Program-made: the position numbers and the translations under genes | The notes under the pieces: generated by a model | Told to the model about the DNA's origin: nothing | What the model saw: the letters and a program-made list of their open reading frames with translations, nothing else | Database searches by the model: none | Shown here: piece by piece, positions 5,959 through 44,733 of the stretch | Layout: every line of letters begins with the position of its first letter | Position numbering within the stretch: position 1 is the stretch's first letter | NCBI GenBank assembly: GCA_028718225.1 | Contig: JAQUMI010000002.1 | Coordinates: 16 to 64,015, forward strand | Source of the DNA: Candidatus Omnitrophota bacterium | Lineage (GTDB): Bacteria; Omnitrophota; Gorgyraeia; Gygaellales; Profunditerraquicolaceae | Direction of reading: 5' to 3' | Length of the DNA: 64,000 nucleotides

Positions 5959-6162
5959 ATGGCTAAAAGACTAAAAGCTAAAGAATTGGTGGGATTATCG
6001 AGAAGTGAGTTGCTGGATAAGGAAAAGGCCCTAAAAGAGGAACTTTTCAATTTAAACGGTCAACGTTATTCCGGCAGAGTGGAAAAACCGCACAGGTTTT
6101 CCCTGGTTAAAAGGGAATTAAGCGTGGTCGCCACCGTATTAAATACAAAGAAAGAAAAATAA
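5959..6162 (+). CDS. rpmC: 50S ribosomal protein L29
   Basis: 67 aa. Operon position between rplP and rpsQ. Confidence 0.9.
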   Translation: MAKRLKAKELVGLSRSELLDKEKALKEELFNLNGQRYSGRVEKPHRFSLVKRELSVVATVLNTKKEK

Positions 6163-6164
6163 AA

Positions 6165-6446
6165 ATGGGCAAAAGAAAACAATTTATCGGCACTGTAGTA
6201 AGTGATAAGATGCAAAAAACAGTTACCGTGCGCGTGATGCAAATAAGTAAACACACGAAGTATTCCCGGGTAGACAGGAGTTACAATAAGTTTAAAGCGC
6301 ATGACGAAAAGGGGATGGCTAAATTGGGAGATACGGTGCGCATAGAAGAAACCCGGCCCATCTCCAAGGATAAGCGTTTTCGGGTCCTGGATGTCGTTAA
6401 AAAGCTTCCGGGGGCGGAAAAAATAGAAATTAAAGAGGAAATTTAA
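6165..6446 (+). CDS. rpsQ: 30S ribosomal protein S17
   Basis: 93 aa. GTVVSDKMQKTVTV is typical of S17. Confidence 0.93.
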   Translation: MGKRKQFIGTVVSDKMQKTVTVRVMQISKHTKYSRVDRSYNKFKAHDEKGMAKLGDTVRIEETRPISKDKRFRVLDVVKKLPGAEKIEIKEEI

Positions 6447-6447
6447 A

Positions 6448-6816
6448 ATGATCCAGTTACGTTCAATATTAAGCGTCGCGGATAATACCGGAGCAAAACG
6501 GGCATCCCTTATTGCAGTCCTGGGTAAGAAAAACTGTCCGAATGCCCAGATCGGCGATGTAGTTAATGTGAATATAAAAGAGTCTTCTCCCGATGCGACG
6601 ATAAAAAAAGGGGAAAAGGCCAAGGCGGTTATCGTCAGGACTAAACAGCCGATCAGGCGCCCCGATGGTTCGGTATTGAGGTTTGACCGGAATGCCGTGG
6701 TGTTTATTGATAATCAGTCTAATCCCCGCGGTACGCGCGTGTTTGGTCCGGTAGCGCGTGAATTAAGGGACAGAAATTTTTCCAAAATCATTTCTTTGGC
6801 TCCCGAGGTCATTTAA
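6448..6816 (+). CDS. rplN: 50S ribosomal protein L14
   Basis: 122 aa with the MIQ...VADNTGAK start. Confidence 0.96.
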   Translation: MIQLRSILSVADNTGAKRASLIAVLGKKNCPNAQIGDVVNVNIKESSPDATIKKGEKAKAVIVRTKQPIRRPDGSVLRFDRNAVVFIDNQSNPRGTRVFGPVARELRDRNFSKIISLAPEVI

Positions 6817-6817
6817 A

Positions 6818-7129
6818 ATGCAAAAAATAAGAAAAAACGATATAGTCCAGGCGGTAAAAGGGAAAGATAAAGGAAAAAAGGGCAAGGTAATCCAGGTAAT
6901 TTCTGCCTCTGGCCGCGCGCTGGTAGAAGGCCTGAATTTAGCCAAGAAACATAAGCGCCAGACGCGCCAGGAGCAAAAAGGCGGGATTGTTTCAATTGAA
7001 ATGCCTATTGCCCTTGCCAATATTATGCTGGTCTGCAAACATTGTAACCGGCCGAGCAGAGCGGGCTTTTCTATTTTAAAAGACGGCACAAAGATAAGGA
7101 TCTGTAAAATTTGTAAAGAGGCAATATAA
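6818..7129 (+). CDS. rplX: 50S ribosomal protein L24 (with a C-terminal CxxC...CxxC)
   Basis: 103 aa with a KOW-like N-terminus (DIVQAVKGKDKGKKGKV). Operon position after rplN. Confidence 0.92.
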   Translation: MQKIRKNDIVQAVKGKDKGKKGKVIQVISASGRALVEGLNLAKKHKRQTRQEQKGGIVSIEMPIALANIMLVCKHCNRPSRAGFSILKDGTKIRICKICKEAI

Positions 7130-7132
7130 AAG

Positions 7133-7696
7133 ATGGAAAAAATAGTCCCAAGGTTACTGGAAAAATATAGAAAAGAAATAGCCCCGCAGATGGTCCAGGA
7201 CTTGAAACTCAAAAATAAGATGGCTGTGCCGCGCCTGGAAAAAATAGTGGTAAATATGGGCGTGGGTGAAGCCTTGCAGGATGTAAAGGTCCTGGAAAAG
7301 GCAATGGAAGAGTTAGCGGCAATTACCGGGCAAAGGCCGATTATGCGCCGCGCTAAAAAAGCCATTTCTAATTTTAAAGTCCGGGAAGGCGCGCCTATAG
7401 GCTGCAAGGTTACTTTGCGCCGGGCAATGATGTATGAGTTTATGGACCGCCTGCTGAATATCGCTTTACCGCGTATCCGCGATTTCCGGGGCGTTTCGAT
7501 CAAGGCCTTTGATAAGGCGGGAAATTATACTCTGGGCCTTAGCGAGCAGGGGATATTTCCGGAAATTGAATATGATAAATTGACCCGGACGCAAGGTATG
7601 GATATAACGTTCGTAATCAGAAACGTAAAATCAAAGGAACAGGCCTTTCTTATGCTGAAATTATTTGGCATGCCCTTTAAAACCGATAAGGATTAG
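7133..7696 (+). CDS. rplE: 50S ribosomal protein L5
   Basis: 187 aa. Operon position; [13 protein letters not shown] is typical of L5. Confidence 0.95.
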
Positions 7697-13722: not shown

Positions 13723-14112
13723 ATGGCGACCAAGGAAAGAGCAAAGAAAAAAAAGATAGCCAGGGGCATAAGTTCGGGCATTGCCCATATTCAGGCCAGT
13801 TTTAATAATACTATAATTACCATTACCGATAAGCAGGGTAATGTTCTGGTTTGGTCAGCTCCGGGAATCGTAGGCTATAGCGGGTCTAAAAAATCTACGC
13901 CTTTTGCCGCCCAGATAGCTGCCTCGGATGCGGCGCGGAAAGCTAAAGAGGTCGGCATTAAAGACGTAGAAGTGCGTGTAAAGGGACCGGGTTTTGGCCG
14001 GGAGAGCGCCATCAGGGCGCTACAGGCTTCAGGCCTGATTATCACTTTGATTAAAGATGTGACTCCTATCCCGCATAACGGTTGTCGTCCGAAGAAGAAA
14101 AGGAGAGTGTAA
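13723..14112 (+). CDS. rpsK: 30S ribosomal protein S11
   Basis: 129 aa with [18 protein letters not shown] and a C-terminal [13 protein letters not shown]. Confidence 0.96.
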
Positions 14113-14115
14113 TTT

Positions 14116-14751
14116 ATGGCACGGTATATTGATGCAGTTTGCAGGTTGTGCCGCAGGCAGGGAGAGAAGCTTTTCCTGAAAGGCACAAAGTGCACGACAG
14201 AAAAATGCCCGGCTTCCAGAAGAGCCTATCCGCCTGGGCAGCACGGCCAGGGAGGCAAAAGACGAAGCAAGCTTTCTAATTACGGGTTGCAGTTAAAGGA
14301 AAAACAAAAAGTAAAAAGAATCTACGGGGTCCTGGAGAAACAATTCCGGCGCTATTTTAAGATTGCTTCGAAAAGCAAGGGTGTCACCGGAAAGGTCCTC
14401 CTGCAATTATTGGAGCGCCGGCTGGATAACGTAATTTTTCGTTTAGGTTTAGGCCTTTCCAGGGCGCAGGCCAGGCAGTTAGTGCGCCATAATTTAATCA
14501 CGGTCAATGCGCGCCGGGTAAATATACCTTCCTATCTGGTAACCGGAGGAGATCTTATTCAGGTCAAAGCTAAAGAAAAGGCGTTGAATAAGATAAAAGA
14601 TATTCTGGAGCAATCCAAGGAGAGGAGCGTTCCCAGCTGGCTGGAATTTAACACCACTGGTTTAAGCGGTAAGGTTTTAAGGTTACCGGAAAAAGACGAC
14701 ATTCAACAGCCTATACAAGAGCAGTTGATTGTAGAATTATATTCTAAATAA
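14116..14751 (+). CDS. rpsD: 30S ribosomal protein S4
   Basis: 211 aa with the MARY...CRLCRR start and an S4 RNA-binding domain. Confidence 0.95.
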
Positions 14752-14786
14752 TAGAGAGTTTGCACTCATTCAAGGAGGAATAATAG

Positions 14787-15779
14787 ATGGGTATAAAATG
14801 GAGAGATTTTCAGTTACCAAAAAGATTAGAGTGTGAGGAGGCTACTTACACTAGTACCTACGGTAAGTTTTCCGCGGCACCCTTTGAGAGGGGTTACGGG
14901 GTTACGCTGGGTAACTCCTTAAGAAGAGTTTTGTTTTCCTCGATAGAGGGAAGTGCGGTAACCAGCGTTAAAATTTCAGGGGTACAGCACGAATTTTCTG
15001 CTATACCGGGAGTCTTGGAGGATATTCCCGAGATCATCCTGAACATTAAGAGCCTGGTTTTGAATTCACATTCAAAAATTCCTAAGACCATCTACATTAA
15101 AGCTAATTCCAAGGGAGAGGTAAAGGCTAAGGATATTGAAGGCGATGAAACTATTGAGATCATCAATCCGGAATTGCATATCGCTACCTTGACCAAAGAT
15201 ACCAAATTGAATATTGAAATGGGTGTTTCCCGCGGCCAGGGTTATGTTCCCGCAGAGTTAAGCAAGAAAGAAGATAAGGCAATAGGCGTTATTCCGATTG
15301 ATGCCATATTTACTCCTATAAAAAAAGTTAATTTCTTTGTGGAGAATACCCGCGTCGGACAGCGTACGGATTACGATAAATTAATCCTGGAAATATTCAC
15401 TAACGGCGCGATCAGCCCTAAAGACGCGTTGTTATACGCCTCCAATATACTCCAGAGGCACCTGGATATATTTGTTAATTTCGGTCAGCTTCCCGAGGAT
15501 ATAGTGGAAGAAGAGTTAGAAATGACCAAGGAAGAAGTATCGCTGTATGAAAAACTAAGGCTCCCTATATCGGAGCTGGAGTTGTCCGTGCGCAGTTCTA
15601 ATTGCTTAAGAGAAGCGGGAATCAAGATAATCGCGGATTTAGTTAAGAAGACCGAAGAGGATATGCTGGATTTCAAAAACTTCGGTAAAAAGTCATTAAC
15701 CGAGATAAAGGAGTTAATGATGGGCATGGGATTAACCTTAGGCATGCAGATTGACTCCAAAAAAATAAAAAAGGCTTAA
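14787..15779 (+). CDS. rpoA: DNA-directed RNA polymerase subunit alpha
   Basis: 330 aa with GVTLGNSLRRVLFSSIEG and a C-terminal domain (ELSVRSSNCLREAGI). Confidence 0.96.
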   Translation: MGIKWRDFQLPKRLECEEATYTSTYGKFSAAPFERGYGVTLGNSLRRVLFSSIEGSAVTSVKISGVQHEFSAIPGVLEDIPEIILNIKSLVLNSHSKIPKTIYIKANSKGEVKAKDIEGDETIEIINPELHIATLTKDTKLNIEMGVSRGQGYVPAELSKKEDKAIGVIPIDAIFTPIKKVNFFVENTRVGQRTDYDKLILEIFTNGAISPKDALLYASNILQRHLDIFVNFGQLPEDIVEEELEMTKEEVSLYEKLRLPISELELSVRSSNCLREAGIKIIADLVKKTEEDMLDFKNFGKKSLTEIKELMMGMGLTLGMQIDSKKIKKA

Positions 15780-15782
15780 AAT

Positions 15783-16358
15783 ATGCGACATAAAAAGAAA
15801 AGGCTGCAACTAAACCGTTTTACCAGTTGGCAGGATGCCACAATTAAGAGCTTAGCCAGGAGTTTACTGATCTATGAGACTATGCGGACTACGCTGCACC
15901 GGGCCAAGGCAGTCAGGCCCTTGGCTGAAAAACTCATTTCCCTGGCAAAGGCGAATACCTTAAGCGCAAAAAGAGAGGCTTTCGGAATTTTAGGCGACCA
16001 TAAATTGGTGGCTTTGCTTTTTAACGAAATCGGCCCGCGTTTCGCTAAAAGAGCCAGCGGCTACACCCGAGTTATCAATTTAGCCAGGCGCAGGGGTGAT
16101 GATGCTCAGGTAGTGATTTTTGAGCTTACTGAGCAAAAGCCCAAGGTAAAAAAAGCCAAAAAAGCAAAAGGGGCAAAAGGCGAGAAAATAGAAAAGGCCG
16201 CCGGAGAGCTCCCTGAGCCGGAGACTCAAGAGAAGCAGGCCGAAAAGCCGCGCGAGGCAGCAGCGGTTAAAGAAAGGGCTCCGCAAAGCAAAAAACCTTC
16301 CAAGAAGTTCCTCGGCGGGATAAGGGGTATTTTTAAGAAAGAAAGGGACTCGCTATAA
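15783..16358 (+). CDS. rplQ: 50S ribosomal protein L17 with a Lys/Glu-rich C-terminal tail
   Basis: 191 aa. The L17 core MRHKKKRLQLNR... spans about the first 120 aa, followed by roughly 70 aa of low-complexity tail. Confidence 0.92.
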   Translation: MRHKKKRLQLNRFTSWQDATIKSLARSLLIYETMRTTLHRAKAVRPLAEKLISLAKANTLSAKREAFGILGDHKLVALLFNEIGPRFAKRASGYTRVINLARRRGDDAQVVIFELTEQKPKVKKAKKAKGAKGEKIEKAAGELPEPETQEKQAEKPREAAAVKERAPQSKKPSKKFLGGIRGIFKKERDSL

Positions 16359-16373: not shown

Positions 16374-17549
16374 ATGCACATAGATACGGGGTTAGCCAGG
16401 CGCTTAAAAAATGTAAAACCTTCATCAACCCTCGCAATCACCTCTAAGGCTAAAAAATTAAAATCCGAAGGGTTTGATATAATAACCCTGGCCGCAGGCG
16501 AACCGGATTTTGACACCCCAGATTTCGTAAAGAGCGCCGCGATTGAAGCGATAAATTCCGGCTTTACCAAGTATACCCCTACCACAGGCATCCCGGATTT
16601 AAAGAAACTAATCTGCGAAAAATTCAAAAAAGACAATTCCCTGGAATATGCGCCTTCACAGATTGTTGTTTCCTGCGGGGCCAAGCACAGTATATTCAAC
16701 GCGCTTTTTGTCTTAATCAACCCCAAAGACGAGGTACTTATTCCTTCCCCTTACTGGGTAAGTTATCCTGAGATGGTTAATCTCTGCGAGGGTATTCCCC
16801 GGTTTATCCAAACTTCGCCCGGGAATAATTTTAAAATAACTCCCCGGGAACTATCCAGGAATATCAGCGCAAAGTCAAAAGTCCTTATTTTAAACACTCC
16901 GGCGAATCCGACGGGCTGCGTATATACGCAAGAGGAATTGAATCAGATTTCGGAAATCTGTGTAAAAAATAAGCTTCTCGTTATCAGCGATGAGATCTAT
17001 GAAAAACTTATTTATGACGGATTAAAGCATCTCTCCCTAGGGAGCTTAAATAAAGAAATCTCTGATTTGACGATTACCGTGAACGGTTTCTCCAAAAGTT
17101 TTTCCATGACCGGCTGGCGTTTAGGTTATTTAGGCGCTCCTGGCGCTATAGCGGAAGCGATTTCGCGCCTGCAGGACCACTCAACCTCTAACCCTAATTC
17201 TATCTCCCAGAAGGCTGGAATAGCCGCGCTCGGCGCTCCGGAGAGCTTCTACCAAAAAATCCGCCAGCAGTTTCAGGAAAGAAGGGATTATTGTATTGCC
17301 AGGCTTAAGGCCATGCCTAAAATAACGCCGGTAGTTCCCCAAGGGGCTTTCTATATTTTTTGTGATATATCCAAAACAAAGCTGGGCGCCATGGAATTCG
17401 CCAGGCAGTTGTTAGAAAAGAAATACTTGAGTGTTATTCCTGGAGACGGTTTTGGGGCGGACCATTATATCCGTATAAGCTTTGCTGCCAGCCAGGATAG
17501 CCTTAAAAAGGGGATGGATAGGCTGGAGGAGTGGTTAAAAGATGGGTAA
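16374..17549 (+). CDS. Class I PLP-dependent aminotransferase (aspartate aminotransferase-like)
   Basis: 391 aa with GEPDFDTP, NPTG and the PLP-lysine context FSKSFSMTGWRLGY. Confidence 0.85.
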   Translation: MHIDTGLARRLKNVKPSSTLAITSKAKKLKSEGFDIITLAAGEPDFDTPDFVKSAAIEAINSGFTKYTPTTGIPDLKKLICEKFKKDNSLEYAPSQIVVSCGAKHSIFNALFVLINPKDEVLIPSPYWVSYPEMVNLCEGIPRFIQTSPGNNFKITPRELSRNISAKSKVLILNTPANPTGCVYTQEELNQISEICVKNKLLVISDEIYEKLIYDGLKHLSLGSLNKEISDLTITVNGFSKSFSMTGWRLGYLGAPGAIAEAISRLQDHSTSNPNSISQKAGIAALGAPESFYQKIRQQFQERRDYCIARLKAMPKITPVVPQGAFYIFCDISKTKLGAMEFARQLLEKKYLSVIPGDGFGADHYIRISFAASQDSLKKGMDRLEEWLKDG

Positions 17550-18795
17550 AACGATAGCTGAAAAGATACTGAGTGCGCATGCCGGAAAAGAATTGAAGGC
17601 CGGCGATTTTGCCGTATGCAAAGTCGATTTTACCTTTGGCCAGGACGGAACAAGCGCGATTATCATTGACCGGATCAAAGAATTGGGAGTAAAACAGTTA
17701 AAAACTGATTTTTGCATGGTGATTGACCATAGCGCGCCTTCTCCAAGCGAAGGGGTCTCGCGAGTGCATAAAAAAATGCATAATTTTGCCAAGGAATTTA
17801 GGCAGCGGATTTTTGATATAGGCTGCGGCGTATGCCACCAGGTAATCCCGGAGTCGGGGAAGGCTTTAGCCGGCAATTTAATCCTGGGAGCAGATTCACA
17901 TACCTGCACCTATGGTGCTTTAGGTGTTTTTTCCACAGGCGTGGGCTCGACAGACCTGGCCATTGCCCTGGCCACAGGCAAAAATTGGTTCAAGGTGCCG
18001 GAAACTTTTAAGATTGTCGTAAAAGGAAAAGTTCCTAAAGGCATATTTGCTAAAGATATCATCCTGGATATTATCGGAAAAGTGGGCGCTGACGGAGCGA
18101 CTTACAAGGCAATTGAATTTTGCGGCCCGGTAATCGAGAAGATGGATATGGACGGCCGTTTGACCATGTGTAATATGGTAGTAGAGATGGGCGCCAAATG
18201 CGGATTTATGCCGCAGGATAAAACTACTTTTGCCTGGCTAAAATCCCGGAGTGTAAGGCGCAGTGTAATTAAGCCCGTAAGCGCAGATAAAGATGCCGAG
18301 TATGAAAAAATCCTGGAAATCGATATATCCAAGCTTAAAAGCCAGGTCTCTCTGCCGCATAGCGTAGACAAGGTAAGGCCGGCGGTAGAATTAAGTACGC
18401 TAAAGATTAATGAAGCATTTTTAGGTACCTGCACAAACGGAAGGTTGCAAGATTTAAAAATAGCTGCTAAAATACTTAAAGGCAGAAGAGTGGCTCCGGG
18501 CGTAAAACTTATTATCGCCCCCAGTTCGCGTTTGATTTTACTGGAAGCCATAAAGTTAAAATTGATCAATATTTTTGTCGAGGCGGGCGGGATAATCCTG
18601 GCTCCGGGATGCGGGCCTTGCGTGGGCACGCACAACGGTATACCCGCGGATGGAGAAGTAGTTATCTCTACCGCCAACAGGAATTTTAAAGGCAGGATGG
18701 GCAATCCCAGCGCCTTTATATACCTGGCTTCTCCGGCAACTGTGGCCGCCTCAGCAGTTAAGGGGTATATTACAGATCCGAAGAGCTTTATTTAA
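17542..18795 (+). CDS. Aconitase-family dehydratase large subunit (archaeal-type LeuC/HacA; substrate unassigned)
   Basis: 417 aa with GADSHTCTYGALG and the Fe-S cysteines in LGTCTNGR and PGCGPCVG. Confidence 0.85.
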   Translation: MGKTIAEKILSAHAGKELKAGDFAVCKVDFTFGQDGTSAIIIDRIKELGVKQLKTDFCMVIDHSAPSPSEGVSRVHKKMHNFAKEFRQRIFDIGCGVCHQVIPESGKALAGNLILGADSHTCTYGALGVFSTGVGSTDLAIALATGKNWFKVPETFKIVVKGKVPKGIFAKDIILDIIGKVGADGATYKAIEFCGPVIEKMDMDGRLTMCNMVVEMGAKCGFMPQDKTTFAWLKSRSVRRSVIKPVSADKDAEYEKILEIDISKLKSQVSLPHSVDKVRPAVELSTLKINEAFLGTCTNGRLQDLKIAAKILKGRRVAPGVKLIIAPSSRLILLEAIKLKLINIFVEAGGIILAPGCGPCVGTHNGIPADGEVVISTANRNFKGRMGNPSAFIYLASPATVAASAVKGYITDPKSFI

Positions 18796-18862
18796 TAATT
18801 ATGAGTTGCGCCCGACCTGATCAAAATTGCGTCGGTGTGCCCTTGTGGGCTAGGAGGTAATA

Positions 18863-19909
18863 ATGGAGATAAGGGAATTGCTTCTGATGTGTATTGAGAA
18901 GAACGCCTCGGATTTACATATAACCGAAAGTGAGCCTCCTATTTTACGTATTGACGGTTCGCTTAAGCGCACGAACCTTCCCGCGCTGGATAAGCATGAG
19001 CTGAAGAAGATGATTTATGGCATACTGAACAATTCTCAAAAAGAGGTTTTTGAAAGAGAGCTGGAGCTGGACTTTTCTCTCGCCCTTCCGGATTTAGACA
19101 GGTTCCGGACAAATATCCATATGCAAAAGGGTGCACCGGAAGGGGCATTCCGGCGTGTGCCGTTGGAAATACCTACGGTTGAAAAATTGGGACTTCCGCA
19201 GATTATCAGCGACCTGGCGCGTAAGCCTAACGGCTTAGTTTTGGTCACCGGGCCTACCGGTATGGGTAAGACTACGACCCTGGCTACAATGATTGACTTG
19301 ATTAATAAAGAGAGAGAATGTTTGATTATGTGCATAGAAGACCCGATCGAATTTGTCTTTAAGAATAATAAGAGTATTATCAAGCAAAGAGAGGTTTATT
19401 CTGATACGCGTTCTTTTGCCGCGGCCCTGATGCACACGTTGCGCCAGGACCCCAACGTCATTGTAGTCGGTGAAATGCGTGATCTGGAAACTATTTCTAC
19501 AGCCCTTACTGCTGCAGAAACCGGGCACTTGGTTTTAGCTACTTTGCATACTCCGGATGCGCCCCAGACTATTGAAAGAATTATCGATGTCTTTCCTCCG
19601 CATCAACAACAACAGGTAAAATTGCAGCTGGCTGATTGCCTGCAGGGGGTAGTTTCGCAACTATTACTCCCGCATGCTTCAGGCAAAGGCAGGGTCCTGG
19701 CTACAGAAATAATGATCGGTACTTCGGGGATAAGAAACCTTATCCGCGAACAGGAGATTGAACAGATCCCCACGCTCATGCAAACAGGCTCGCAATACGG
19801 AATGAAGACTATGGATAAATGCTTAAAAGAGCTGACCCAAAGGGGCGATATTACCCTGGATGTTGCGCTCTCTAAAGCTAAAAACGCGGATGAATTCAGG
19901 CAACTATGA
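18863..19909 (+). CDS. pilT: Type IV pilus retraction ATPase PilT
   Basis: 348 aa with Walker A GPTGMGKTT, IEDPIEF, GEMRD, ATLHT and the GIRNLIRE motif. AGGAGG SD upstream. Confidence 0.9.
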   Translation: MEIRELLLMCIEKNASDLHITESEPPILRIDGSLKRTNLPALDKHELKKMIYGILNNSQKEVFERELELDFSLALPDLDRFRTNIHMQKGAPEGAFRRVPLEIPTVEKLGLPQIISDLARKPNGLVLVTGPTGMGKTTTLATMIDLINKERECLIMCIEDPIEFVFKNNKSIIKQREVYSDTRSFAAALMHTLRQDPNVIVVGEMRDLETISTALTAAETGHLVLATLHTPDAPQTIERIIDVFPPHQQQQVKLQLADCLQGVVSQLLLPHASGKGRVLATEIMIGTSGIRNLIREQEIEQIPTLMQTGSQYGMKTMDKCLKELTQRGDITLDVALSKAKNADEFRQL

Positions 19910-20406
19910 AATTAATCGGCCAGGCTTTAAAATTAGGCGATAATATCAATACGGATTTTATTATTTCGGGAAGGTATAAGTTCGCCATTACCGATATGAA
20001 AGAACTGGCCAAGCATATTATGGAGGATATTGATCCCGGATTTGCGGCAAAGATAAAGCCGGGTAAATCTATGATTGTTGCCGGTAATAATTTCGGTATG
20101 GGGTCCTCGCGCGAACAGGCGCCCCTGGTCATAAAGGAAGCCGGGATTGTGGCGGTATTGGCTAAGAGCTTCGCGCGTATTTTCTACCGGAATGCGTTTA
20201 ATATCGGGCTAGCCTTGATCGAGACAGATACGGATAAAATCGGCGAGAACGATCTGCTCGAGATAGACCTGGATAAAGGGATTGTCAGAAATACGTCAAA
20301 AAATATTGACCTTATCTTAAAGCCATTCCCCAAATTTATGCAGGAGCTGCTTAAGGAAGGCGGTATAATAAACTATTACCGTAAACACGGAGAGTTGAAA
20401 GTTTAA
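19906..20406 (+). CDS. Aconitase-family dehydratase small subunit (LeuD/HacB type)
   Basis: 166 aa with [14 protein letters not shown] and the swivel-domain motif [14 protein letters not shown]. The start overlaps the pilT stop. Confidence 0.85.
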
Positions 20407-20407
20407 A

Positions 20408-21496
20408 ATGACACACAAAGTAACCTTAATTCCCGGCGATGGCATCGGCCTTGAGGTAAGCCTGGCCGCCAAAAGATGTATCGAGGCAACTGGAGTAAAA
20501 ATAGAGTGGGAAGAGGCCCTGGCCGGAAGTTTGGCGCTGGAAAAAACCGGTGAATTATTGCCTAAAAGTACACTGGATTCCCTGAGAAAAAACAAAGTAG
20601 CCTTGAAAGGCCCGATCATTACCCCGATAGGCGGAGGTTTTCGTTCGGTTAATGTCGGCATCCGGCAGGCCTTAGGCCTTTATGCCTGCGTGCGGCCGGC
20701 AAAAACATACCCGGGAGTAAAAAGCCTGTATAAAGATATTGACCTGGTGATTATTCGCGAGAACAGCGAAGACCTCTACGCGGGAATAGAATTTGAAGAG
20801 GGAAAGCCAGCGACAAATAAACTTATCCAGGAAATAGAAAAATCCAGCCAAAAAAAGATCCGGCCGGATTCCGGTATTTCTATCAAGCCCATTTCTAAGA
20901 CTGCTTCCGAAAGGATAGTCAGATTTGCTTTTGAATATGCTCTAAAGCATGGCCGTAAAAAAGTCACTCTCGTGCATAAGGCGAATATTATGAAATTTAC
21001 CGATGGACTGTTCTTAAAAAGCGGCCGCGAAGTCGCCAAGGATTATGCCGGAAAAATCAGTTTTAGTGAAGCCATAGTTGATAATATGTGTATGCAACTG
21101 GTGCAGAAACCGCACCTTTATGACGTTCTAGTCCTGCCCAATCTTTACGGAGATATACTCTCAGACTTGTGCGCCGGGCTTATCGGAGGGCTGGGGATTG
21201 CCCCGGGTGCCAATATCGGAGATGGCCTGGCAGTATTTGAAGCGGTGCACGGCTCGGCGCCAAAATATAAAGGCTTAAATAAAGTAAACCCCAGCGCGAT
21301 GATCTTGTCGGGCGTGCTTATGCTGGAGTATCTCAAAGAAGAAAAGGCCAGCTTGGCGCTGGAAAATGCAGTTAAGTCAGTCATTGCCGAAGGCCGGTAT
21401 GTCACCTACGATTTTAAATCCGATCCTAACGATCCTCATGCAGTCGGCACGCAAGAAATGGCTGACGCGATTATTCAGAAAATAAAAAATAAATAG
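20408..21496 (+). CDS. icd: Isocitrate dehydrogenase-like beta-decarboxylating dehydrogenase
   Basis: 362 aa. [31 protein letters not shown] closely mirrors the E. coli Icd substrate loop [31 protein letters not shown], including the Ser/Asn equivalents. Confidence 0.7.
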
Positions 21497-21516: not shown

Positions 21517-22437
21517 ATGAAAATAAGCATTATCGGTGCAGGAAATGTCGGTGCTTTAAGCGCTATGCGTATCGCGCAGTATAATTTAGGCGATATCTTT
21601 CTGGTAGACATAGCCAGGGGGCTGGCCAGGGGTAAGTCTTTGGATTTAGCCGATGCCCAGGCAGCATTGGGGTTCGATTATAATATTCAGGGATCCGATG
21701 ATATTAGCAGCATAAAGGACTCCGATATAGTGGTGATTACTGCTGGCCTGGCCCGCAAACCCGGAATGACCCGCGAAGAACTCCTTACCAAAAATAGCCA
21801 GATTTTAAAAGATGTCTGCGTAAATATAAAGGAATTGGCCCCTCAAGCCGTCGTAATAGTAGTGACTAATCCGCTGGATTTGATGACTTATTTGGCATTA
21901 AAGACAACCGGTTTTGCCAAGAATAAGGTACTGGGTATGGGCAGCAGCCTGGACAGCTCAAGATTAGCTAACCTTATTGCGCGGGAATTAAAGCTGTCAG
22001 CTACTAGCGTAGAAACAATGGTAATCGGAGCGCATGGCGAGGGGATGCTACCTTTAGCCAGGCACACTAAAATAAAAGGGGTAAGCCTGGAAGAATTTTT
22101 AAGTGACGAGAAAATGGAAAGCCTAACCAAGGAGACTATCGGCAGGGGAGCCGAGATTGTCGCTTTATTAGGCAGCGGAAGCGCTTTTTTTGCGCCGTCT
22201 GCCGCAGTTGCACAAATGGTTAAAATTATCGCCAAGGACGAAAAGAAAATTGCCGGGGCCTGCGCTTACCTGGACGGAGAGTACGGTATTAAAGATATCT
22301 GCCTAGGCGTACCGTGCCGCCTGGGCAGGACCGGTATTGAAAAAATTATCGAACTGGATTTAACCGCTAAAGAGAAAAAAGAATTGCTCTGTTCAGCTGA
22401 TTCTATCCGCAATTTATTAAAACAGCTATCTTTTTAA
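21517..22437 (+). CDS. mdh: Malate dehydrogenase (LDH-like family)
   Basis: 306 aa with the GAGNVG Rossmann motif. GLARKPGMTR carries Arg at the MDH/LDH discriminating position. Catalytic His in IGAHG. Confidence 0.88.
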   Translation: MKISIIGAGNVGALSAMRIAQYNLGDIFLVDIARGLARGKSLDLADAQAALGFDYNIQGSDDISSIKDSDIVVITAGLARKPGMTREELLTKNSQILKDVCVNIKELAPQAVVIVVTNPLDLMTYLALKTTGFAKNKVLGMGSSLDSSRLANLIARELKLSATSVETMVIGAHGEGMLPLARHTKIKGVSLEEFLSDEKMESLTKETIGRGAEIVALLGSGSAFFAPSAAVAQMVKIIAKDEKKIAGACAYLDGEYGIKDICLGVPCRLGRTGIEKIIELDLTAKEKKELLCSADSIRNLLKQLSF

Positions 22438-22440: not shown

Positions 22441-23730
22441 ATGTACGATTTAGCCATAATCGGCGCGGGTTGGGCAGGTTTTAACGCTTGTTTAAAAGCA
22501 AAGCAGCTAGGCCTTAAGGCTGTTCTTATCGATAAATCGTTTCTTGGCGGTACCTGCCTTAACCTGGGATGCATACCTACCAAAACACTTATCCAATCCG
22601 CAAAGGTATTTAACCTGGTTAAGAAATCTTCGGATTTTGGCATTAACGTTTCTGGCGCTGCAATTGATTTTCCTAAAATACAGGAGAGAAAAGACAAGCT
22701 AATTCAGCAGTTGCGTAGCGGCATGCAGCAGATGCTCAAGGGCCTTGATTACCTAAACGGCCAGGCCCGGCTCGTCTCCAGCCAGGAAATCAGGGTTTTA
22801 GAAAAAACTATCCGGGCCAGGAATATCCTTATTGCTACAGGCTCTAAGCCATACGAGCTTGCCCAATTTAAATTTGACGCTAAAAAAATCCTCTCCAGTA
22901 ATGAAATAATTTCCTTAAAAGAAGTCCCCGGTTCGCTTTTGATAATCGGCGGCGGAGTTATCGGTTGTGAATTTGCCGGGCTTTTTTCCCATCTAGGCAC
23001 AAAAGTAACTCTCGTAGAAAAAATGCCCCAGCTTCTCCCCGGGGAAGACAGGGAAGTAGCTAAAAGAATAGAAACAGCGTTTAAAAAAAAGGGGATCAAG
23101 GTAAATACTGCTACCGACGCTGCGGTTTTTAATTTGGCTGATTTTGATATTGTCTTAGTTTGCGTGGGAAGGAAAGCGCAAATTGAGAATTTAGGCCTGG
23201 AGGAAGCGGGGGTAAATTTAGATCAAGGCGCTATTGCGGTTGATGATTACCTAAAAACGAGTATAAATAATATTTACGCAGCCGGGGATTGCACCGCTAA
23301 AATAATGCTTGCCCACTTTGCCAGTTATCAGGGGATAAGCGCCGTTTGCAACCTGGCCTACCCGGATAAACATAAGGCCGCCGCTTCGCCTTGCGTCCCT
23401 AGTTGTATTTTTACGGACCCTGAAATCGCCTCTGTTGGCCTGAGCGAAGATAAGGCCCGCTTGTCCGGACGGCATATAACTATCCACAGGTTTGATTTTC
23501 TGGGCAGCGGCATGGCGCGTATCCTGGGCGAAACAGAAGGGTTGATTAAGATAATTTCCGATGCTAAGACTGGCGTAGTTTTAGGCGCCGCGATTATCGG
23601 ACCAAGGGCGACCGAATTAATCGGGATTTTCACCCTGGCTCTAGCGCGCTGCTTGAGCATTCAAGACCTGCGGGAAACCATATTTGCCCACCCAACTCTT
23701 TCAGAATCAATAACCGAAGCAATAAGATAA
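22441..23730 (+). CDS. lpdA: Dihydrolipoyl dehydrogenase (E3) family flavoprotein disulfide reductase
   Basis: 429 aa with GAGWAG, the redox disulfide GGTCLNLGCIPTK and a C-terminal HPTLSE dyad. Confidence 0.8.
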   Translation: MYDLAIIGAGWAGFNACLKAKQLGLKAVLIDKSFLGGTCLNLGCIPTKTLIQSAKVFNLVKKSSDFGINVSGAAIDFPKIQERKDKLIQQLRSGMQQMLKGLDYLNGQARLVSSQEIRVLEKTIRARNILIATGSKPYELAQFKFDAKKILSSNEIISLKEVPGSLLIIGGGVIGCEFAGLFSHLGTKVTLVEKMPQLLPGEDREVAKRIETAFKKKGIKVNTATDAAVFNLADFDIVLVCVGRKAQIENLGLEEAGVNLDQGAIAVDDYLKTSINNIYAAGDCTAKIMLAHFASYQGISAVCNLAYPDKHKAAASPCVPSCIFTDPEIASVGLSEDKARLSGRHITIHRFDFLGSGMARILGETEGLIKIISDAKTGVVLGAAIIGPRATELIGIFTLALARCLSIQDLRETIFAHPTLSESITEAIR

Positions 23731-23735
23731 AAACT

Positions 23736-24392
23736 ATGCCTTTAAAAGTCACTGACCTTGGCTTAGTGGATTTTCAAGACGCCCGGGTGCGACAGAAGGA
23801 ATTATTCCGGGAAGTAGAAGCCGGGCTCTGGGACGCCGGATTAATCGTCTGCCGGCATTATCCTGCGATTACCGTCAGCCGGCGCTCAAGTAGGAATAAC
23901 ATCCTGGTTTCTCAGGAAGAACTCAAAAATAAAGGCATTAGTCTCTATGAGGTTGAGCGCGGAGGGGACGTTACCTACCATGGCCCCGGGCAGCTTATCG
24001 CTTATCCGGTATTCAATTTAAATTATTTTAAAAAGGATATCCACTGGTTTATAAGGTATCTTGAAGGCCTGATCATCCGCTGCCTGGATGAATCCGGAGT
24101 GAAAGGAGAAAGAGCCCCCGGGCTAACCGGTGTTTGGGCCGGCCGGTTAAAAATAGCTTCTATCGGGATCGCGGTCAGAAAGTGGATTACTTTTTACGGA
24201 TTAAGCATAAACATTAAAAACAATGATCTGGCCAATTTTTCCTTGATTAGGCCCTGCGGTATGGATATAATGGTTACATCGATGGAATCCGAAACCGGCG
24301 GAGTTGTTCAAGCTGAGGAAGTTAAGCAGAATCTGGTAAGTTTATTTAAGGACTCTTCCGGTTTCTTCAACCGGGATCGGCCCAGGAGATAA
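23736..24392 (+). CDS. lipB: Octanoyltransferase LipB
   Basis: 218 aa with RGGDVTYHGPGQL and a catalytic-Cys region (PCGM). Confidence 0.88.
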   Translation: MPLKVTDLGLVDFQDARVRQKELFREVEAGLWDAGLIVCRHYPAITVSRRSSRNNILVSQEELKNKGISLYEVERGGDVTYHGPGQLIAYPVFNLNYFKKDIHWFIRYLEGLIIRCLDESGVKGERAPGLTGVWAGRLKIASIGIAVRKWITFYGLSINIKNNDLANFSLIRPCGMDIMVTSMESETGGVVQAEEVKQNLVSLFKDSSGFFNRDRPRR

Positions 24393-24398
24393 AAAGCA

Positions 24399-24635
24399 AT
24401 GGTAAAAATAATTTTGCCGCAATTAAGCGAAGGCATCCAAAAAGCCACGGTCTCCTACTGGTATTTTAAAATAGGAGACCAGGTCAAGGAAAAAGATGAC
24501 CTGGTAGAGCTTACTACGGATAAAGCCACTTTTAACCTGCCCAGCCCTTGTCCAGGGATACTTACGGAAATTTCGGCCTTGGAAGGCTCGACGGTAAACG
24601 TAGGGGATAGTTTAGGTTTGATCCAGGAGAGCTAA
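24399..24635 (+). CDS. Free-standing lipoyl-attachment domain protein
   Basis: 78 aa. PQLSEGIQKATV...VELTTDKATFNLPSPCPG matches an E2-type lipoyl domain with the TDKA lipoyl-lysine motif. No catalytic domain follows. Confidence 0.8.
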   Translation: MVKIILPQLSEGIQKATVSYWYFKIGDQVKEKDDLVELTTDKATFNLPSPCPGILTEISALEGSTVNVGDSLGLIQES

Positions 24636-24656
24636 AAAATAAAAGGGCGCGCCTAA

Positions 24657-25823
24657 ATGGCTATTGATTTTAAAAAAGAATTAGAAACTGCCGCACGCAA
24701 CATGATTTTCGTGCATGACCCGGACTTGCTTATCAAGATAATCGTGCGGATGGTGGTTGATAAAGTGCAGGTTGAGCACGCCAGCATACTCATGTATAAA
24801 CCGGACCGTCAGGCGTATGTGCTCACTGTTTCCGGAGGATCGCTGGCAAAAAAAATACCTATCGGCCTGGCTGGTTTTGACAAAGATGATTCCCTGATCC
24901 GTTTTTTCAGGGAGCGCGGCAGCCGGCTCTTATTTAACAGCGATGTTCTTACTCTGGAGGGCGCACAGGCCTACCTGAAAACAGGTCAGGCTAAAGAACG
25001 CCTGAAGCATCTTTTGGCAGACGTACTCTATCAGATGAAGATGCTGGAAACGGTAACTTGCATACCAAGCTATTTCAGGGATGAGTTGTTGGGCGTATTA
25101 CTGTTGGGCAGAAAGAAAAACGGAAAAAGGTTCCTGCGGGGAGAGCTGGATTTTTTTGAGGCCCTGGCTTCCAATATGTCTATGGCGATAAGAAACGCCA
25201 ATCTTTTCAAGGAGCTTAAATCCGAACTGGATAAAAAGCACCAGCTTTTTATGCGCACAACTATTGCTTTGGTTGCTGCCATAGAAGCGAAAGATAATTA
25301 TACGCACGGGCACACTACCCGGGTGACTAACTTAAGCCTGGAAATCGCTAAGAGGCTCTCCCGGAAGAATAAGAAGGTCTGGGACAACAAATTTATTGAA
25401 AAACTCCATATTGCCAGCCTGCTTCATGATATCGGCAAAATCGGCGTCCCCGAACATATACTTAATAAAAGAGGGGCCTTGACTATAGGCGAAAGGAACA
25501 AAATCAAAGAACATCCTTTAATCGGGGTAACCATTCTTAAACCTATAAAAGAATTAGAGCAGGCTTTAGTCGGAATAAAATATCACCATGAGCGGCCGGA
25601 TGGCCGGGGGTATCCGGAGGGCTTAAAAGGCGACCAGATCCCTCTGGTTGCTTCTATTATATCGGTAGCTGACTCTTTTGACGCTATGACTACGGATAGG
25701 CCGTACCGAGCGGCCCTGTATAAAAATGAAGCTATAAATGAAATCCGGAAATTGAGTAACCTGCAATTTAATCCCCGCGTAACCGAAGCATTTCTGGAAT
25801 TATGCCAGGAAGGTAAACTCTAA
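24657..25823 (+). CDS. GAF-like sensor / HD-GYP c-di-GMP phosphodiesterase
   Basis: 388 aa with HGHTTRV, HDIGKIGVP and HHERPDGRGYP (the HD-GYP signature). The N-terminal roughly 190 aa are GAF-like. Confidence 0.82.
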   Translation: MAIDFKKELETAARNMIFVHDPDLLIKIIVRMVVDKVQVEHASILMYKPDRQAYVLTVSGGSLAKKIPIGLAGFDKDDSLIRFFRERGSRLLFNSDVLTLEGAQAYLKTGQAKERLKHLLADVLYQMKMLETVTCIPSYFRDELLGVLLLGRKKNGKRFLRGELDFFEALASNMSMAIRNANLFKELKSELDKKHQLFMRTTIALVAAIEAKDNYTHGHTTRVTNLSLEIAKRLSRKNKKVWDNKFIEKLHIASLLHDIGKIGVPEHILNKRGALTIGERNKIKEHPLIGVTILKPIKELEQALVGIKYHHERPDGRGYPEGLKGDQIPLVASIISVADSFDAMTTDRPYRAALYKNEAINEIRKLSNLQFNPRVTEAFLELCQEGKL

Positions 25824-28473: not shown

Positions 28474-28977
28474 TTGATCCAGGTATATACGGGTAATGGA
28501 AAAGGTAAAACCACAGCCGCGCTGGGCCTGGCCCTAAGGGCCGCTGGCGCAGGATTTAAGGTATATCTGGGCCAGTTTTTAAAAAAGGGGCATTACAGCG
28601 AAATTGCTTCTCTGAAAAAGCTCAAGAATATCAAAGTTGAGCAGTTCGGGGTAACCTATTTTACGCGCTGCGCTCTTCAGAGAAAAGACGTGGAATTGGC
28701 TAAAAAAGGATTAACCGCGGCAAAAAGAGCTATTAATAGCCGGCGCTACGCGCTGATCGTGCTGGATGAAATAAACGTTGCCTTAAGGCTGGGGCTTTTA
28801 AGCTTACCCGCAGTCCTTGCCGTGATAAAGAAAACCCCCAAGAAGATAGAGCTAGTCCTTACCGGCCGCTCGGCACACCCCGCCATCATAAAAATCGCGG
28901 ATTTAGTCAGCGAGGTAAAAGAGAGGAAACATTATTATAAGAAAAGCGTGAAGGCAAGAAAAGGCATTGAATTTTAA
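28474..28977 (+). CDS. cobO: Cob(I)alamin/cob(I)yrinic acid a,c-diamide adenosyltransferase (CobO/BtuR type)
   Basis: 167 aa with a TTG start. IQVYTGNGKGKTTAALGLALRAAGAG and ALIVLDEIN are typical. Confidence 0.88.
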   Translation: MIQVYTGNGKGKTTAALGLALRAAGAGFKVYLGQFLKKGHYSEIASLKKLKNIKVEQFGVTYFTRCALQRKDVELAKKGLTAAKRAINSRRYALIVLDEINVALRLGLLSLPAVLAVIKKTPKKIELVLTGRSAHPAIIKIADLVSEVKERKHYYKKSVKARKGIEF

Positions 28978-29015: not shown

Positions 29016-29423
29016 ATGTATAAATATGGTTTCACCCTTATAGAACTTATCATCGTAGTCATCATCGTGGCTATCCTTGCCCTAGTTGCCATCCCCAGAT
29101 ACTATGCCAATGTAGCTAAAGCACAGAAATCCCAGGTTTATAGCAACCTTAATAACATAATACAGGCAGCCAGGGCTTATTACGCAGTTAAAGGCGCTTG
29201 GCCTGCACAGGATGTTTTTCCTATTACCGTAACTATTGACGGAGATACCATATATAATGTAGCTAATCCCGACCCAAATTATACGTTTTGGCATTATTAC
29301 CATACCTCCGTCACTTGTGCATCTAGAGGTGTATATGGAACGTATGCCTATAAACAACCCGGTAATACCTGCGAGTATGGACTTTGTACGGATGCCTATA
29401 CCTGGGGAACCTGTACACCGTAG
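29016..29423 (+). CDS. Type IV pilin-like protein (prepilin with an N-terminal methylation motif), paralog 1
   Basis: 135 aa. MYKYG/FTLIELIIVVIIVAILALVAIPRY shows class III signal features (Gly-1, Phe+1, Glu+5). Four Cys in the C-terminal half; ends in TCTP. Confidence 0.85.
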   Translation: MYKYGFTLIELIIVVIIVAILALVAIPRYYANVAKAQKSQVYSNLNNIIQAARAYYAVKGAWPAQDVFPITVTIDGDTIYNVANPDPNYTFWHYYHTSVTCASRGVYGTYAYKQPGNTCEYGLCTDAYTWGTCTP

Positions 29424-29518: not shown

Positions 29519-29534
29519 AAAAAAGACAACTTAA

Positions 29535-29730
29535 TTATAGGTTAGGGAAATCAGTAAGCCCCAAGGATATGTTTTGGCTTGCGTTAGCCAAAGCCATAAG
29601 CCTAAAAGGCCAAAGCTGATGCGGTCCCGCCGCTGTAACGGGCAAGTAATGCTTACAAAAAGCCACTGGTTGAAAAGACTGGGAAGGCCGTAAGAGAAAT
29701 AAGCCCTAAAGCCAGAAGACCTGCCTATAA
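29535..29730 (+). promoter_or_regulatory. Cobalamin riboswitch aptamer (long form with GCCACUG/GGGAAGGC extension)
   Basis: P1 TTATAGG (29535-41) pairs with CCTATAA (29724-30). Also present: AGGGAAATCAG..., GGTCCCGCCGCTGTAA, GCCACTGG...CTGGGAAGGC and the B12 box GCCAGAAGACCTGCC (29711-25). It lies upstream of btuFCD-cob genes. Confidence 0.85.
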
Positions 29731-29773
29731 AAAGATACGCCTCGTGGAATGGGCCAGAGCTATATTTGGGTGC

Positions 29774-31601: not shown

Positions 31602-32386
31602 AACCATTGCTAAGGATCGCTAATTTAAGCGCCGGCTACTCCGGCGAAGATATCATTAGGGGCGTATCTTTGGAGATTAATGCCGGCGATTTCATCGGAA
31701 TTATCGGGCCGAATGGCTCAGGCAAAACCACGCTTTTAAGGCTGTGCTCTAAGGTCCTGCGTCCCCGTAAGGGAAAAATTTATTTTGATAATAAGGATAT
31801 CTTCGCTATGGATTTAAAGGGGTTTTGCCGCAAGGTAGCCTTTGTTTCCCAGGACATCTCTACCGGTTTTTCATTCAGCGTAATGGAGCTGGCCCTAATG
31901 GGAAGGATTCCGCATTTAAAGAGGCTGCAATTTGAAACCCGAAAAGATATCGAAATCTGCGAGAAGGCGCTCGCCTTAACCGATTCTTTGGGCTTAAAGG
32001 AAAAAATAGTTAACGAACTAAGCGCAGGTGAACGCCAGCGGGCAATTATTTCCCGGGCCTTGGCCCAGGAGCCGGTACTTTTATTGCTGGATGAACCGAC
32101 AGCGCACCTGGATATCGGCCACCAGATTCAAGTGATGGATTTACTTAAAAAACTCAACCATCAGAATAACCTGACTATTATTATGATCCTGCACGATTTA
32201 AACCTTGCCAGCGCCTATTGTAACCGCATTTGCCTGCTGGATAACGGAAATATATTTAAAGAAGGCCAGGCCGAAGACGTGCTTACTTATAAAAATATAG
32301 AAGCGGTGTATAAAACAGTTGTTTTGGTGAATACTAATCCGGTTACTAAAAGGCCGAATGTAGTTTTAGTGCCGAAAGAAATATGA
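31598..32386 (+). CDS. btuD: ABC transporter ATPase (BtuD-like)
   Basis: The track ORF starts at 31481 inside btuC. I prefer ATG 31598 (MKPLLRIANLS), an ATGA overlap with the btuC stop. Walker A GPNGSGKTT, the LSAGERQR signature and LLLLDEP are present. Confidence 0.8.
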   Translation: MKPLLRIANLSAGYSGEDIIRGVSLEINAGDFIGIIGPNGSGKTTLLRLCSKVLRPRKGKIYFDNKDIFAMDLKGFCRKVAFVSQDISTGFSFSVMELALMGRIPHLKRLQFETRKDIEICEKALALTDSLGLKEKIVNELSAGERQRAIISRALAQEPVLLLLDEPTAHLDIGHQIQVMDLLKKLNHQNNLTIIMILHDLNLASAYCNRICLLDNGNIFKEGQAEDVLTYKNIEAVYKTVVLVNTNPVTKRPNVVLVPKEI

Positions 32387-32967
32387 AAGTCACGCGCCTT
32401 ACCTTAATCCGCCACGGCTTAACGCAGTGGAATAAGCTGGGCCGTTATTGCGGCCGCAAAGATGTGGCTTTAAGTAAAGAGGGAAGAGCGCAAGCGCAAT
32501 GTTTAGCTAAGCAGCTAAAGGCTGCCAGGTTTGACAAGGTTTATTCCAGCGATAGGAAACGCAGCCTCCAGACCGCCCGCATAGTATTTAAAAAAGCTAA
32601 AATTATCCGGGCATCTTCGTTAAGAGAGCTTGATTTCGGGGTTCTGGAAGGATTACGCCATAATGAAATCATGGAGAAATATCCGTCTGTTTATAGACGG
32701 TGGCTTAATGATCCGTACCGGGATTGTATCCCCGGGGCTGAACCTATGCGCGGGTTTAAACGGAGGGTTAAGCTGGGCCTGGAAAAGATTATCCGCTTAA
32801 ATGCGGGAAAAAATTTGGCAATTGTTTGCCATGGAGGAGTAATCGGCATATTCATCAGCAGTATATTAAAAAAAAAGAATTTCTGGCGCTATATTCCGAA
32901 AACGGCAAGCTTGACCATAATTGAATGTACGGGAGGCATCTTTAAGATCAAGGAGAGGAATGGGTAA
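32383..32967 (+). CDS. cobC: Histidine-phosphatase family protein, alpha-ribazole phosphatase (CobC-like)
   Basis: 194 aa with the RHG motif (LIRHGLTQWN) and CHGGVI. Sits in the cob operon. Confidence 0.75.
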   Translation: MKVTRLTLIRHGLTQWNKLGRYCGRKDVALSKEGRAQAQCLAKQLKAARFDKVYSSDRKRSLQTARIVFKKAKIIRASSLRELDFGVLEGLRHNEIMEKYPSVYRRWLNDPYRDCIPGAEPMRGFKRRVKLGLEKIIRLNAGKNLAIVCHGGVIGIFISSILKKKNFWRYIPKTASLTIIECTGGIFKIKERNG

Positions 32968-33478: not shown

Positions 33479-33484
33479 ATTTAA

Positions 33485-44643: not shown

Positions 44644-44716
44644 GCCGGCGTAGCTCAGTTGGTAGAGCGTCTGTTTTGTAAACAGATGGTCGGGGGTTCG
44701 ATTCCTCTCGCCGGCT
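44644..44716 (+). tRNA. tRNA-Thr (anticodon UGU)
   Basis: Hand-folded cloverleaf with acceptor GCCGGCG/CGCCGGC, anticodon arm TCTGT-TTTGTAA-ACAGA and T-loop TTCGATT. 73 nt, no encoded CCA. Starts 1 nt after the nnrD stop. Confidence 0.9.
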
Positions 44717-44733
44717 TTTAAAGGTAAATGAAC

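Follow-up and report, generated by a model that had tools for sequence, protein, structure and literature searches.

A conserved pilT gene between the large- and small-subunit genes of a LeuCD/HacAB-type dehydratase in Omnitrophota

The window analyzed here, a 64,000-nucleotide (nt) stretch of contig JAQUMI010000002.1 from a Candidatus Omnitrophota bacterium, carries a complete pilT gene for a type IVa pilus retraction ATPase between the large- and small-subunit genes of a LeuCD/HacAB-type dehydratase. The identical order recurred in 84 further loci, which is far beyond chance; the arrangement is genuine and ancient, and purifying selection acts on it. The elements of the trio are as follows.

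17542-18795, plus strand: large subunit of an archaeal-type LeuC/HacA [4Fe-4S] hydro-lyase (aconitase superfamily), 417 amino acids (aa), assigned from profile scores
18796-18862, plus strand: spacer before pilT, 67 nt
18863-19909, plus strand: intact pilT, encoding a PilT/PilU-family type IVa pilus retraction ATPase of 348 aa
19906-19909, plus strand: ATGA, the overlap of the pilT stop codon (TGA) with the small-subunit start codon (ATG)
19906-20406, plus strand: small subunit, LeuD/HacB type, of the same hydro-lyase, 166 aa

The three genes had been proposed as intact at these positions in a sequence-only reading of the window, and both the open reading frames (ORFs) and the profile scores bore this out; the 67-nt gap, the ATGA, and an AGGAGG belonging to pilT (18852-18857, 5 nt before its ATG) were likewise present in the sequence. 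The spacer contains a second in-frame stop codon (TAA at 18796-18798) and folded no better than its shuffles (z = 0.11). Neither junction had terminator-like sites in the terminator scan, and the promoter scan gave nothing at the junctions, with a promoter-like count of 20 versus 12.8 ± 3.5 in shuffles, a modest excess. Structured RNA was absent within the operon. A conserved RNA element in the pilT spacer was considered and not proposed, because the fold was not significant and the spacer length is not conserved.

Judged from its sequence, the middle gene product is a bona fide PilT. It scored 463.2 bits against TIGR01420 (cutoff, 319.1) over model positions 2-343 of 343, and it aligned end to end with the Geobacter PilT structures 5zfq and 6ojx (E ~1e-110) at ~58% identity, as estimated from the alignment. 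The alignment with 5zfq covered GPTGMGKTT (Walker A), VVGEMRD, TGHLVLATLHT, and GIRNLIRE, with the Walker B and His-box regions aligned. Among Omnitrophota PilT orthologs, Walker A read GPTG[M/V]GKTT in 75 of 85, compared to GPTGSGKST in the Geobacter structure, and xIRNLIRE was matched in 60 of 88, the other 28 failing the strict pattern.

Loci of relatives were gathered in two scans, one with PilT against species-representative genomes and one with a large-subunit alignment against metagenome contigs, and the window proteins were mapped onto every locus found by tblastn synteny (loci carry L-number labels). The conserved order was rpoA-rplQ-AAT-large subunit-pilT-small subunit-ICDH-MDH-LPD, where AAT is an aspartate-aminotransferase-family enzyme, ICDH an isocitrate/isopropylmalate-dehydrogenase-family enzyme, MDH malate dehydrogenase, and LPD dihydrolipoyl dehydrogenase (Lpd). 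In the interrupted state (state A), comprising the 84 further loci, pilT directly followed the large-subunit gene, at identities down to 62% for PilT and 54% for the large subunit; it included the closed genome of Candidatus Velamenicoccus archaeovorus LiM (NZ_CP019384.1) and CP070837.1. In state B (pilT only; five loci, L022-L025 and L028), pilT came next after AAT at a distance of 15-69 nt, both subunit genes were absent from the locus, and ICDH or LipB came after pilT where the sequence goes on. In state C (uninterrupted; 16 loci), the same operon had the small-subunit gene directly after the large-subunit gene and no pilT; such operons were found in L148-L152, L155, L157, and L160-L167, and gene calls in GCA_028715645.1 and GCA_001804165.1 confirmed the state.

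A single contig, L031, represented state D, in which pilT and the small-subunit gene overlap by 35 nt (1149-2733) in an unrelated neighborhood and are followed by HU, HisRS, PFK, and CNNM transporters. Its large-subunit gene was not found in the 1.1 kb upstream or the 6 kb downstream, so that the small subunit may be an orphan or its partner may be encoded elsewhere in the genome. Non-operon pilT copies stood beside a pilU-like paralog in L032, L034, and L035, and none of the non-Omnitrophota PilT loci (identity at most 59%) had this gene context. In large-subunit protein searches, the matches listed were all from Omnitrophota, with at least 69% identity.

Two NCBI assemblies of metagenome-assembled genomes (MAGs), deposited separately, carried the window's exact PilT protein in this gene order; the exact large-subunit protein occurred on three contigs, and the identical locus of one relative on 22 contigs from JGI, ENA, and NCBI. 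PilT was the second most conserved protein after RpoA, with a median identity to the window protein of 79.6% (69 state-A loci); the other medians in state-A loci were 82.8% for RpoA, 76.8% for the small subunit, 76.4% for ICDH, 72.5% for the large subunit, and 66.4% for AAT. PilT identity exceeded large-subunit identity in 98% of paired loci.

The spacer upstream of pilT was 3 to 263 nt long, with a median of 20 nt, and did not exceed 25 nt in 48 of 84 loci. The 4-nt overlap of pilT with the small-subunit gene occurred in 41 of 72 loci (57%), and the junction was within 10 nt in 53 of 72 and reached 257 nt at most; in loci without pilT, the large- and small-subunit genes overlapped by 4 nt in 6 of 16. 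The ATGA geometry would suit termination-reinitiation coupling. The earlier proposal that the small-subunit gene is positioned for coupling to pilT thus holds for the window and for the 41 loci, and it does not hold universally, given the gaps up to 257 nt.

The trio is embedded in a long one-strand run with gaps of a few bases. AAT starts 15 nt past rplQ, and its end overlaps the large-subunit start by 8 nt. The flanking genes in the window are the following.

13723-14112, plus strand: rpsK, alpha-operon tail, from translations
14116-14751, plus strand: rpsD, alpha-operon tail, from translations
14787-15779, plus strand: rpoA, alpha-operon tail, from translations and tblastn synteny
15783-16358, plus strand: rplQ, directly upstream of the aminotransferase gene, from translations and tblastn synteny
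16374-17549, plus strand: AAT, a pyridoxal 5'-phosphate (PLP) enzyme of the aspartate aminotransferase family (Pfam Aminotran_1_2, E = 1e-76)
20408-21496, plus strand: ICDH, isocitrate/isopropylmalate-dehydrogenase family; the best models were isocitrate dehydrogenase, all below cutoffs
21517-22437, plus strand: MDH, malate dehydrogenase (NF004863, 394 bits versus a cutoff of 283)
22441-23730, plus strand: dihydrolipoyl dehydrogenase (Lpd), from profile match and synteny
23736-24392, plus strand: LipB, from profile match and synteny
24399-24635, plus strand: small lipoyl-domain protein, from profile match and synteny

Pfam calls on homologous loci agreed with the ribosomal alpha-operon tail (13723-16358, plus strand), and AAT scored 433 bits against NF041091, below the equivalog cutoff. 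Upstream of S11, the gene run includes EF-Tu, S10 to L16, S8 and L6, and SecY, Map, and S13. By synteny, the Lpd-LipB-lipoyl-domain block (22441-24635) is the conserved downstream end of the run; after the lipoyl-domain gene come genes for an HD-GYP protein, a monogalactosyldiacylglycerol (MGDG)-synthase-like glycosyltransferase, and a lipid A acyltransferase (Lip_A_acyltrans). In the window, a GAF/HD-GYP protein (24657-25823) follows the lipoyl-domain gene. In the uninterrupted relatives L163-L166, a radical-SAM gene (lipA-like) lies between lipB and the lipoyl-domain gene, and the window (23736-25823) is without it there. Two minus-strand ORFs (6066-6623 and 6763-7503) had no family matches and were dismissed, as they probably shadow small ribosomal-protein genes of the plus strand.

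The large subunit scored 545.8 bits against NF001614 (cutoff, 385), 530.7 bits against TIGR01343 hacA_fam (cutoff, 385.7), and 530.7 bits against TIGR02086 (cutoff, 410.15); the cluster cysteines C297, C357, and C360 and the DSHT motif were invariant in an alignment of eight divergent large-subunit homologs. The small subunit scored 188.1 bits against TIGR02087 (cutoff, 108.95) and has the GSSRE substrate-binding motif (as GMGSSREQA). All LeuCD/HacAB equivalog models stayed below cutoff, with TIGR02083 at 474 versus 611, NF040615 at 466 versus 550, TIGR02084 at 187 versus 246, and NF040625 at 181 versus 230. By these scores, the enzyme would be placed neither in 3-isopropylmalate isomerase (LeuCD) proper nor in homoaconitase (HacAB) proper.

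The substrate-recognition loop of the small subunit reads ISGRYKFAI (19951-19977), and ISGRYKF[A/S]I was found in essentially all Omnitrophota small-subunit loci, interrupted or uninterrupted. The loop has a part in substrate specificity (PMC7308503). In comparison to HacB (YLRT) and LeuD (YLVY) of Methanocaldococcus jannaschii, the Omnitrophota loop is one residue longer, has a lysine, and is unlike both, and it is also unlike that of the Pyrococcus horikoshii small subunit (YNLT); a lineage-specific substrate preference may follow from it. The adjoining ICDH, MDH, and aminotransferase genes suggest an aconitase-like step in the "horseshoe" tricarboxylic acid (TCA) cycle of the phylum (PMC10066038). 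A citramalate synthase (53437-55014; TIGR00977, 743 bits with a cutoff of 450) adjoins genes for homoserine dehydrogenase, a threonine-synthase-like PLP enzyme, phosphoglycerate mutase, and aspartate kinase (48009-53431). This cluster implies that isoleucine is made by way of citramalate, a pathway requiring a LeuCD-type isomerase, and the split dehydratase may also, or instead, serve isoleucine synthesis. The gene-order finding is unaffected by the substrate of the enzyme.

Of 141 Velamenicoccia genomes, 135 have type IVa pilus genes, and V. archaeovorus expresses them (PMC10066038). In the rest of the window, pilB/C/M-Q-type genes were absent from the ORFs examined, as the sequence-only reading had said, and two pilin-like N_methyl ORFs (29016-29423 and 63426-63842) agreed in number with its two orphan pilins; of the three PilZ genes it had listed, one was located (45760-46143).

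Both subunit genes and pilT are expressed in the cultured relative V. archaeovorus, for which transcripts per million (TPM) and relative intensity-based absolute quantification (riBAQ) values in parts per million (ppm) for each gene in three fractions were taken from Tables S1 and S2 of PMC12583861. The proteins were matched to QAT16813-QAT16820 by exact-sequence look-up, and the large subunit to coding sequence (CDS) 635 (QAT18000) by position; riBAQ values are given in the order 10kS cells / 100S aggregates / 100S cells.

RpoA: TPM 37.9; riBAQ 1860 / 1067 / 2786 ppm
L17: TPM 36.7; riBAQ 339 / 102 / 373 ppm
AAT: TPM 11.5; riBAQ 156 / 59 / 214 ppm
Large subunit: TPM 20.6; riBAQ 98 / 39 / 91 ppm
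PilT: TPM 35.1; riBAQ 808 / 261 / 1139 ppm
Small subunit: TPM 19.7; riBAQ 202 / 21 / 219 ppm
ICDH: TPM 23.0; riBAQ 151 / 47 / 174 ppm
MDH: TPM 16.5; riBAQ 315 / 88 / 220 ppm

All of these genes were expressed, and the transcript levels of the large-subunit, pilT, and small-subunit genes were within about two-fold. PilT protein was 4- to 13-fold more abundant than either subunit and reached about 0.25-0.4 of the RpoA riBAQ (molar) level, an unusually large amount for a retraction ATPase. Both subunits were present in the proteome despite the interruption, and their levels differed by no more than about two-fold in two of the three fractions; the earlier argument that adjacency is needed for subunit stoichiometry was therefore too strong. 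The V. archaeovorus large subunit (L027 4593-5855, CP019384.1) has an accession out of series, QAT18000 lying between QAT16815 and QAT16816. Its deposited start codon probably differs, because the protein collection lacks the 420-aa product that a start at the first ATG would give.

Taxonomic placement of the loci followed Seymour et al. 2023 (genome table). State A was found in at least three orders, Gygaellales (GCA_002774445.1 and GCA_011620275.1), Velamenicoccales (LiM), and Duberdicusellales (B7_G16), and state C in 2-01-FULL-45-10, a family in that placement and an order in GTDB R232. In GTDB R232, all orders carrying states A and C belong to the class Gorgyraeia (formerly Koll11), which holds 41 of the orders of the phylum. 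The locus L011, named after the Gorgyraeales MAG GWA2_41_15, was not relied on as a Gorgyraeales record, its PilT having been found only in Hainich assemblies.

In a bootstrapped neighbor-joining tree of RpoA and AAT, built without an outgroup and rooted at the midpoint, state B was monophyletic (100% bootstrap) and nested among state A; this nesting implies that state B would have arisen secondarily, the two subunit genes being lost and pilT retained. State C clustered with the state-A loci L029 and L030 (95%). An outgroup-rooted PilT tree joined the operon-resident PilTs of states A and B in one clade (95%), with bootstrap values of 38-64% at the deep nodes.

The architecture was compared to that of known systems. 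Other bacteria normally have leuC-leuD-type genes side by side. Canonical leuC-leuD and hacA-hacB pairs, including the 2-01-FULL-45-10 operon (GCA_001804165.1 and GCA_028715645.1), belong to the same enzyme families, and this operon also shares with the window the recognition loop ISGRYKF and the flanks, from SecY through rpoA, rplQ, AAT, ICDH, MDH, Lpd, and LipB to the MGDG synthase and Lip_A_acyltrans. The window differs from adjacent pairs in having a complete pilT between the subunit genes and a small-subunit start that overlaps the pilT stop instead of the large-subunit stop. In model type IVa pilus bacteria, pilT, often with pilU, lies away from pilB/pilC and pilMNOPQ. The orthologous pilT of the window is likewise unlinked from the pilus assembly genes, but it stands inside a ribosomal-protein/TCA operon rather than alone or beside pilU. 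The order of S10-spc-alpha super-operons (secY-adk-map-infA-rpsM-rpsK-rpsD-rpoA-rplQ) is identical up to rplQ, whereas in Omnitrophota the near-gapless run goes on into the aminotransferase, dehydratase, pilT, ICDH, MDH, and lipoate genes. As to heterodimer genes that are unlinked, LeuC/LeuD and HacA/HacB of M. jannaschii are encoded at dispersed loci. Arabidopsis isopropylmalate isomerase (IPMI) has one large- and three small-subunit genes (PMC7308503), and adjacency is accordingly not required for a working heterodimer; those genes are simply dispersed, whereas in the window just one unrelated gene separates the two within a common operon. All components are from known families, and literature searches on pilT with Omnitrophota or with isopropylmalate dehydratase found no earlier description of this gene order.

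The reading that we favor, with a probability of roughly 0.7, is that pilT is a long-standing resident of a housekeeping super-operon of ribosomal proteins, rpoA, and TCA-branch enzymes, co-expressed with the dehydratase and not functionally tied to it. The gene would be transcribed by read-through from the upstream genes, because the gap before it is too short for a promoter of its own in most loci, and it would be translated efficiently from its own strong ribosome-binding site. The weakly signaled small-subunit gene would, in roughly half of the lineages, have its translation coupled to the stop codon of pilT and, in the uninterrupted relatives, to that of the large-subunit gene instead. 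Such a placement would give the retraction ATPase steady, high, growth-linked expression in organisms that presumably depend on type IV pili for attachment or predation. A biochemical link between PilT and the dehydratase would not be involved, and neither partner seems to need the other, because states B and C each keep one without the other. The gene order would persist because rearrangement would disturb a tightly packed, coupled operon. Of the two explanations offered by the sequence-only reading, the old fixed insertion is supported by the occurrence in at least three orders, the native composition, and the lack of repeats, and co-expression as a functional link is not supported, given states B and C. 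The whole is a real and probably benign operon quirk and no new molecular system.

Several observations weigh against this reading of pilT as a mere resident. The order of unrelated genes usually decays fast, and conservation across orders could reflect selection for the linkage itself, which "hitch-hiking" leaves unexplained. The retention of pilT with the small subunit and without the large one in L031 hints at an unusually sticky junction. In V. archaeovorus, the pilT TPM was about 1.7-fold that of both flanking subunit genes, and a 145-nt gap precedes pilT; this leaves room for a promoter within the run or for mRNA segments of unequal stability. A single transcript is not proved by similar TPMs, and the transcript data are those of this relative.

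The polarity of the change may be either a single pilT insertion into an adjacent pair or a later excision in the 2-01-FULL-45-10 lineage. That the interrupted order is ancestral for the whole class, with the 2-01-FULL-45-10 operons and L134 arising by secondary precise removal or relocation of pilT, is a serious contender that falls somewhat short of even odds. The grouping of the uninterrupted loci with the interrupted L029 and L030 speaks for it, as does the position of the interrupted L026 and L033 across the midpoint root; the outgroup-less topology fits a single insertion if the root lies on the uninterrupted branch. The non-operon pilT of L032 grouped with L029/L030 in a first PilT tree but is basal in the rooted one, where deep support is low, as given above. 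The close relative L134 is without pilT (large subunit 74% identical), and its 127-nt spacer between the subunit genes (1516-1642) holds two GC-rich palindromes, CCCTCTCCCCTAAAGGGGGAGAGGG and CTTCTCCCCCTTTAGGGGGAGAAG, which resemble hairpins of the repetitive extragenic palindromic (REP) type; these favor removal, but L134 is only a 1.8-kb contig with a coverage of ~2. Moreover, the usual adjacency of leuC-leuD-type pairs in other bacteria makes adjacency primitive at some depth.

An adaptive linkage is unlikely. Under it, pilus retraction would be co-regulated with the TCA/amino-acid branch, or translation of pilT would gate small-subunit synthesis, and metabolism would be coordinated with predatory attachment. 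The order is kept across orders at PilT identities down to 62%, ATGA recurs in 57% of the junctions, including those of the very divergent L026, L030, and L033, pilT and the small-subunit gene are still paired in L031, away from the operon, and PilT is abundant in the predator V. archaeovorus. However, pilT stays in its slot without both subunit genes in L022-L025 and L028, a sister lineage has the same operon without pilT, 43% of the pilT/small-subunit junctions are not overlapped, with gaps up to 257 nt, protein levels of PilT and the subunits differ 4- to 13-fold, and the literature searches found no such link.

A stronger form, in which the slot is a selected "expression socket" that wires the retraction motor into the growth-rate-controlled ribosomal super-operon, with assembly of the holo-dehydratase dependent on pilT translation via the ATGA, is more doubtful still. 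If it were true, attachment and retraction capacity would be coordinated with 2-oxoglutarate and amino-acid supply in tiny epibiotic or predatory bacteria, and the recurrent pairing of pilT with the small subunit in states A and D would be a footprint of selection.

The idea that pilT reached this organism recently, by horizontal transfer or as a mobile cassette, might draw on the gene's own strong Shine-Dalgarno sequence and 67-nt spacer. It is refuted by synteny, with orthologs in the same slot across orders and the 95% clade of state-A and state-B PilTs, and it also conflicts with the native composition (guanine-plus-cytosine content [GC], 0.464; GC at third codon positions [GC3], 0.499; both, like codon usage, within the range of the neighbors) and with the absence of direct or inverted repeats at the pilT borders, where the repeat search gave only short chance matches. 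An assembly or binning artifact, in which a chimeric join put pilT between the subunit genes, has only the a priori oddity of the arrangement in its favor and is refuted by the same junctions in separate short-read assemblies, in closed genomes, and in the 84 loci from different studies and habitats, so that the misassembly which the sequence-only reading wished to see checked is excluded. Its other safeguard, universal adjacency in relatives combined with marks of recent acquisition, found no counterpart in the synteny comparison, the composition, or the repeats.

Elsewhere in the window, a cobalamin riboswitch (86 bits; 29522-29742) lies upstream of genes for a BtuF-like binding protein and a FecCD permease, with cobalamin salvage genes nearby (CobO, 28474-28977; CobU/CobT/CobS, 32921-35270) and a TonB-dependent receptor at 35986-37956. 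A 781-nt unannotated stretch (31602-32382) separates the FecCD permease gene from a histidine-phosphatase gene. A cluster of tRNA-Thr(TGT), tRNA-Tyr(GTA), and tRNA-Gly(TCC) and a separate tRNA-Pro(GGG) were located at 44644-44976 and 47163-47237, respectively.

The arrangement provides a synteny marker for a large uncultured part of Omnitrophota, with interrupted, pilT-only, uninterrupted, and pilT-plus-small-subunit forms. It also offers a natural experiment in which the re-wiring of translational coupling can be followed after a foreign gene has come to separate the two genes of an obligate heterodimer. For the organisms themselves, it shows that these putative predators express their retraction ATPase from a housekeeping context, and the level in V. 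archaeovorus fits a constitutive need for pilus dynamics.

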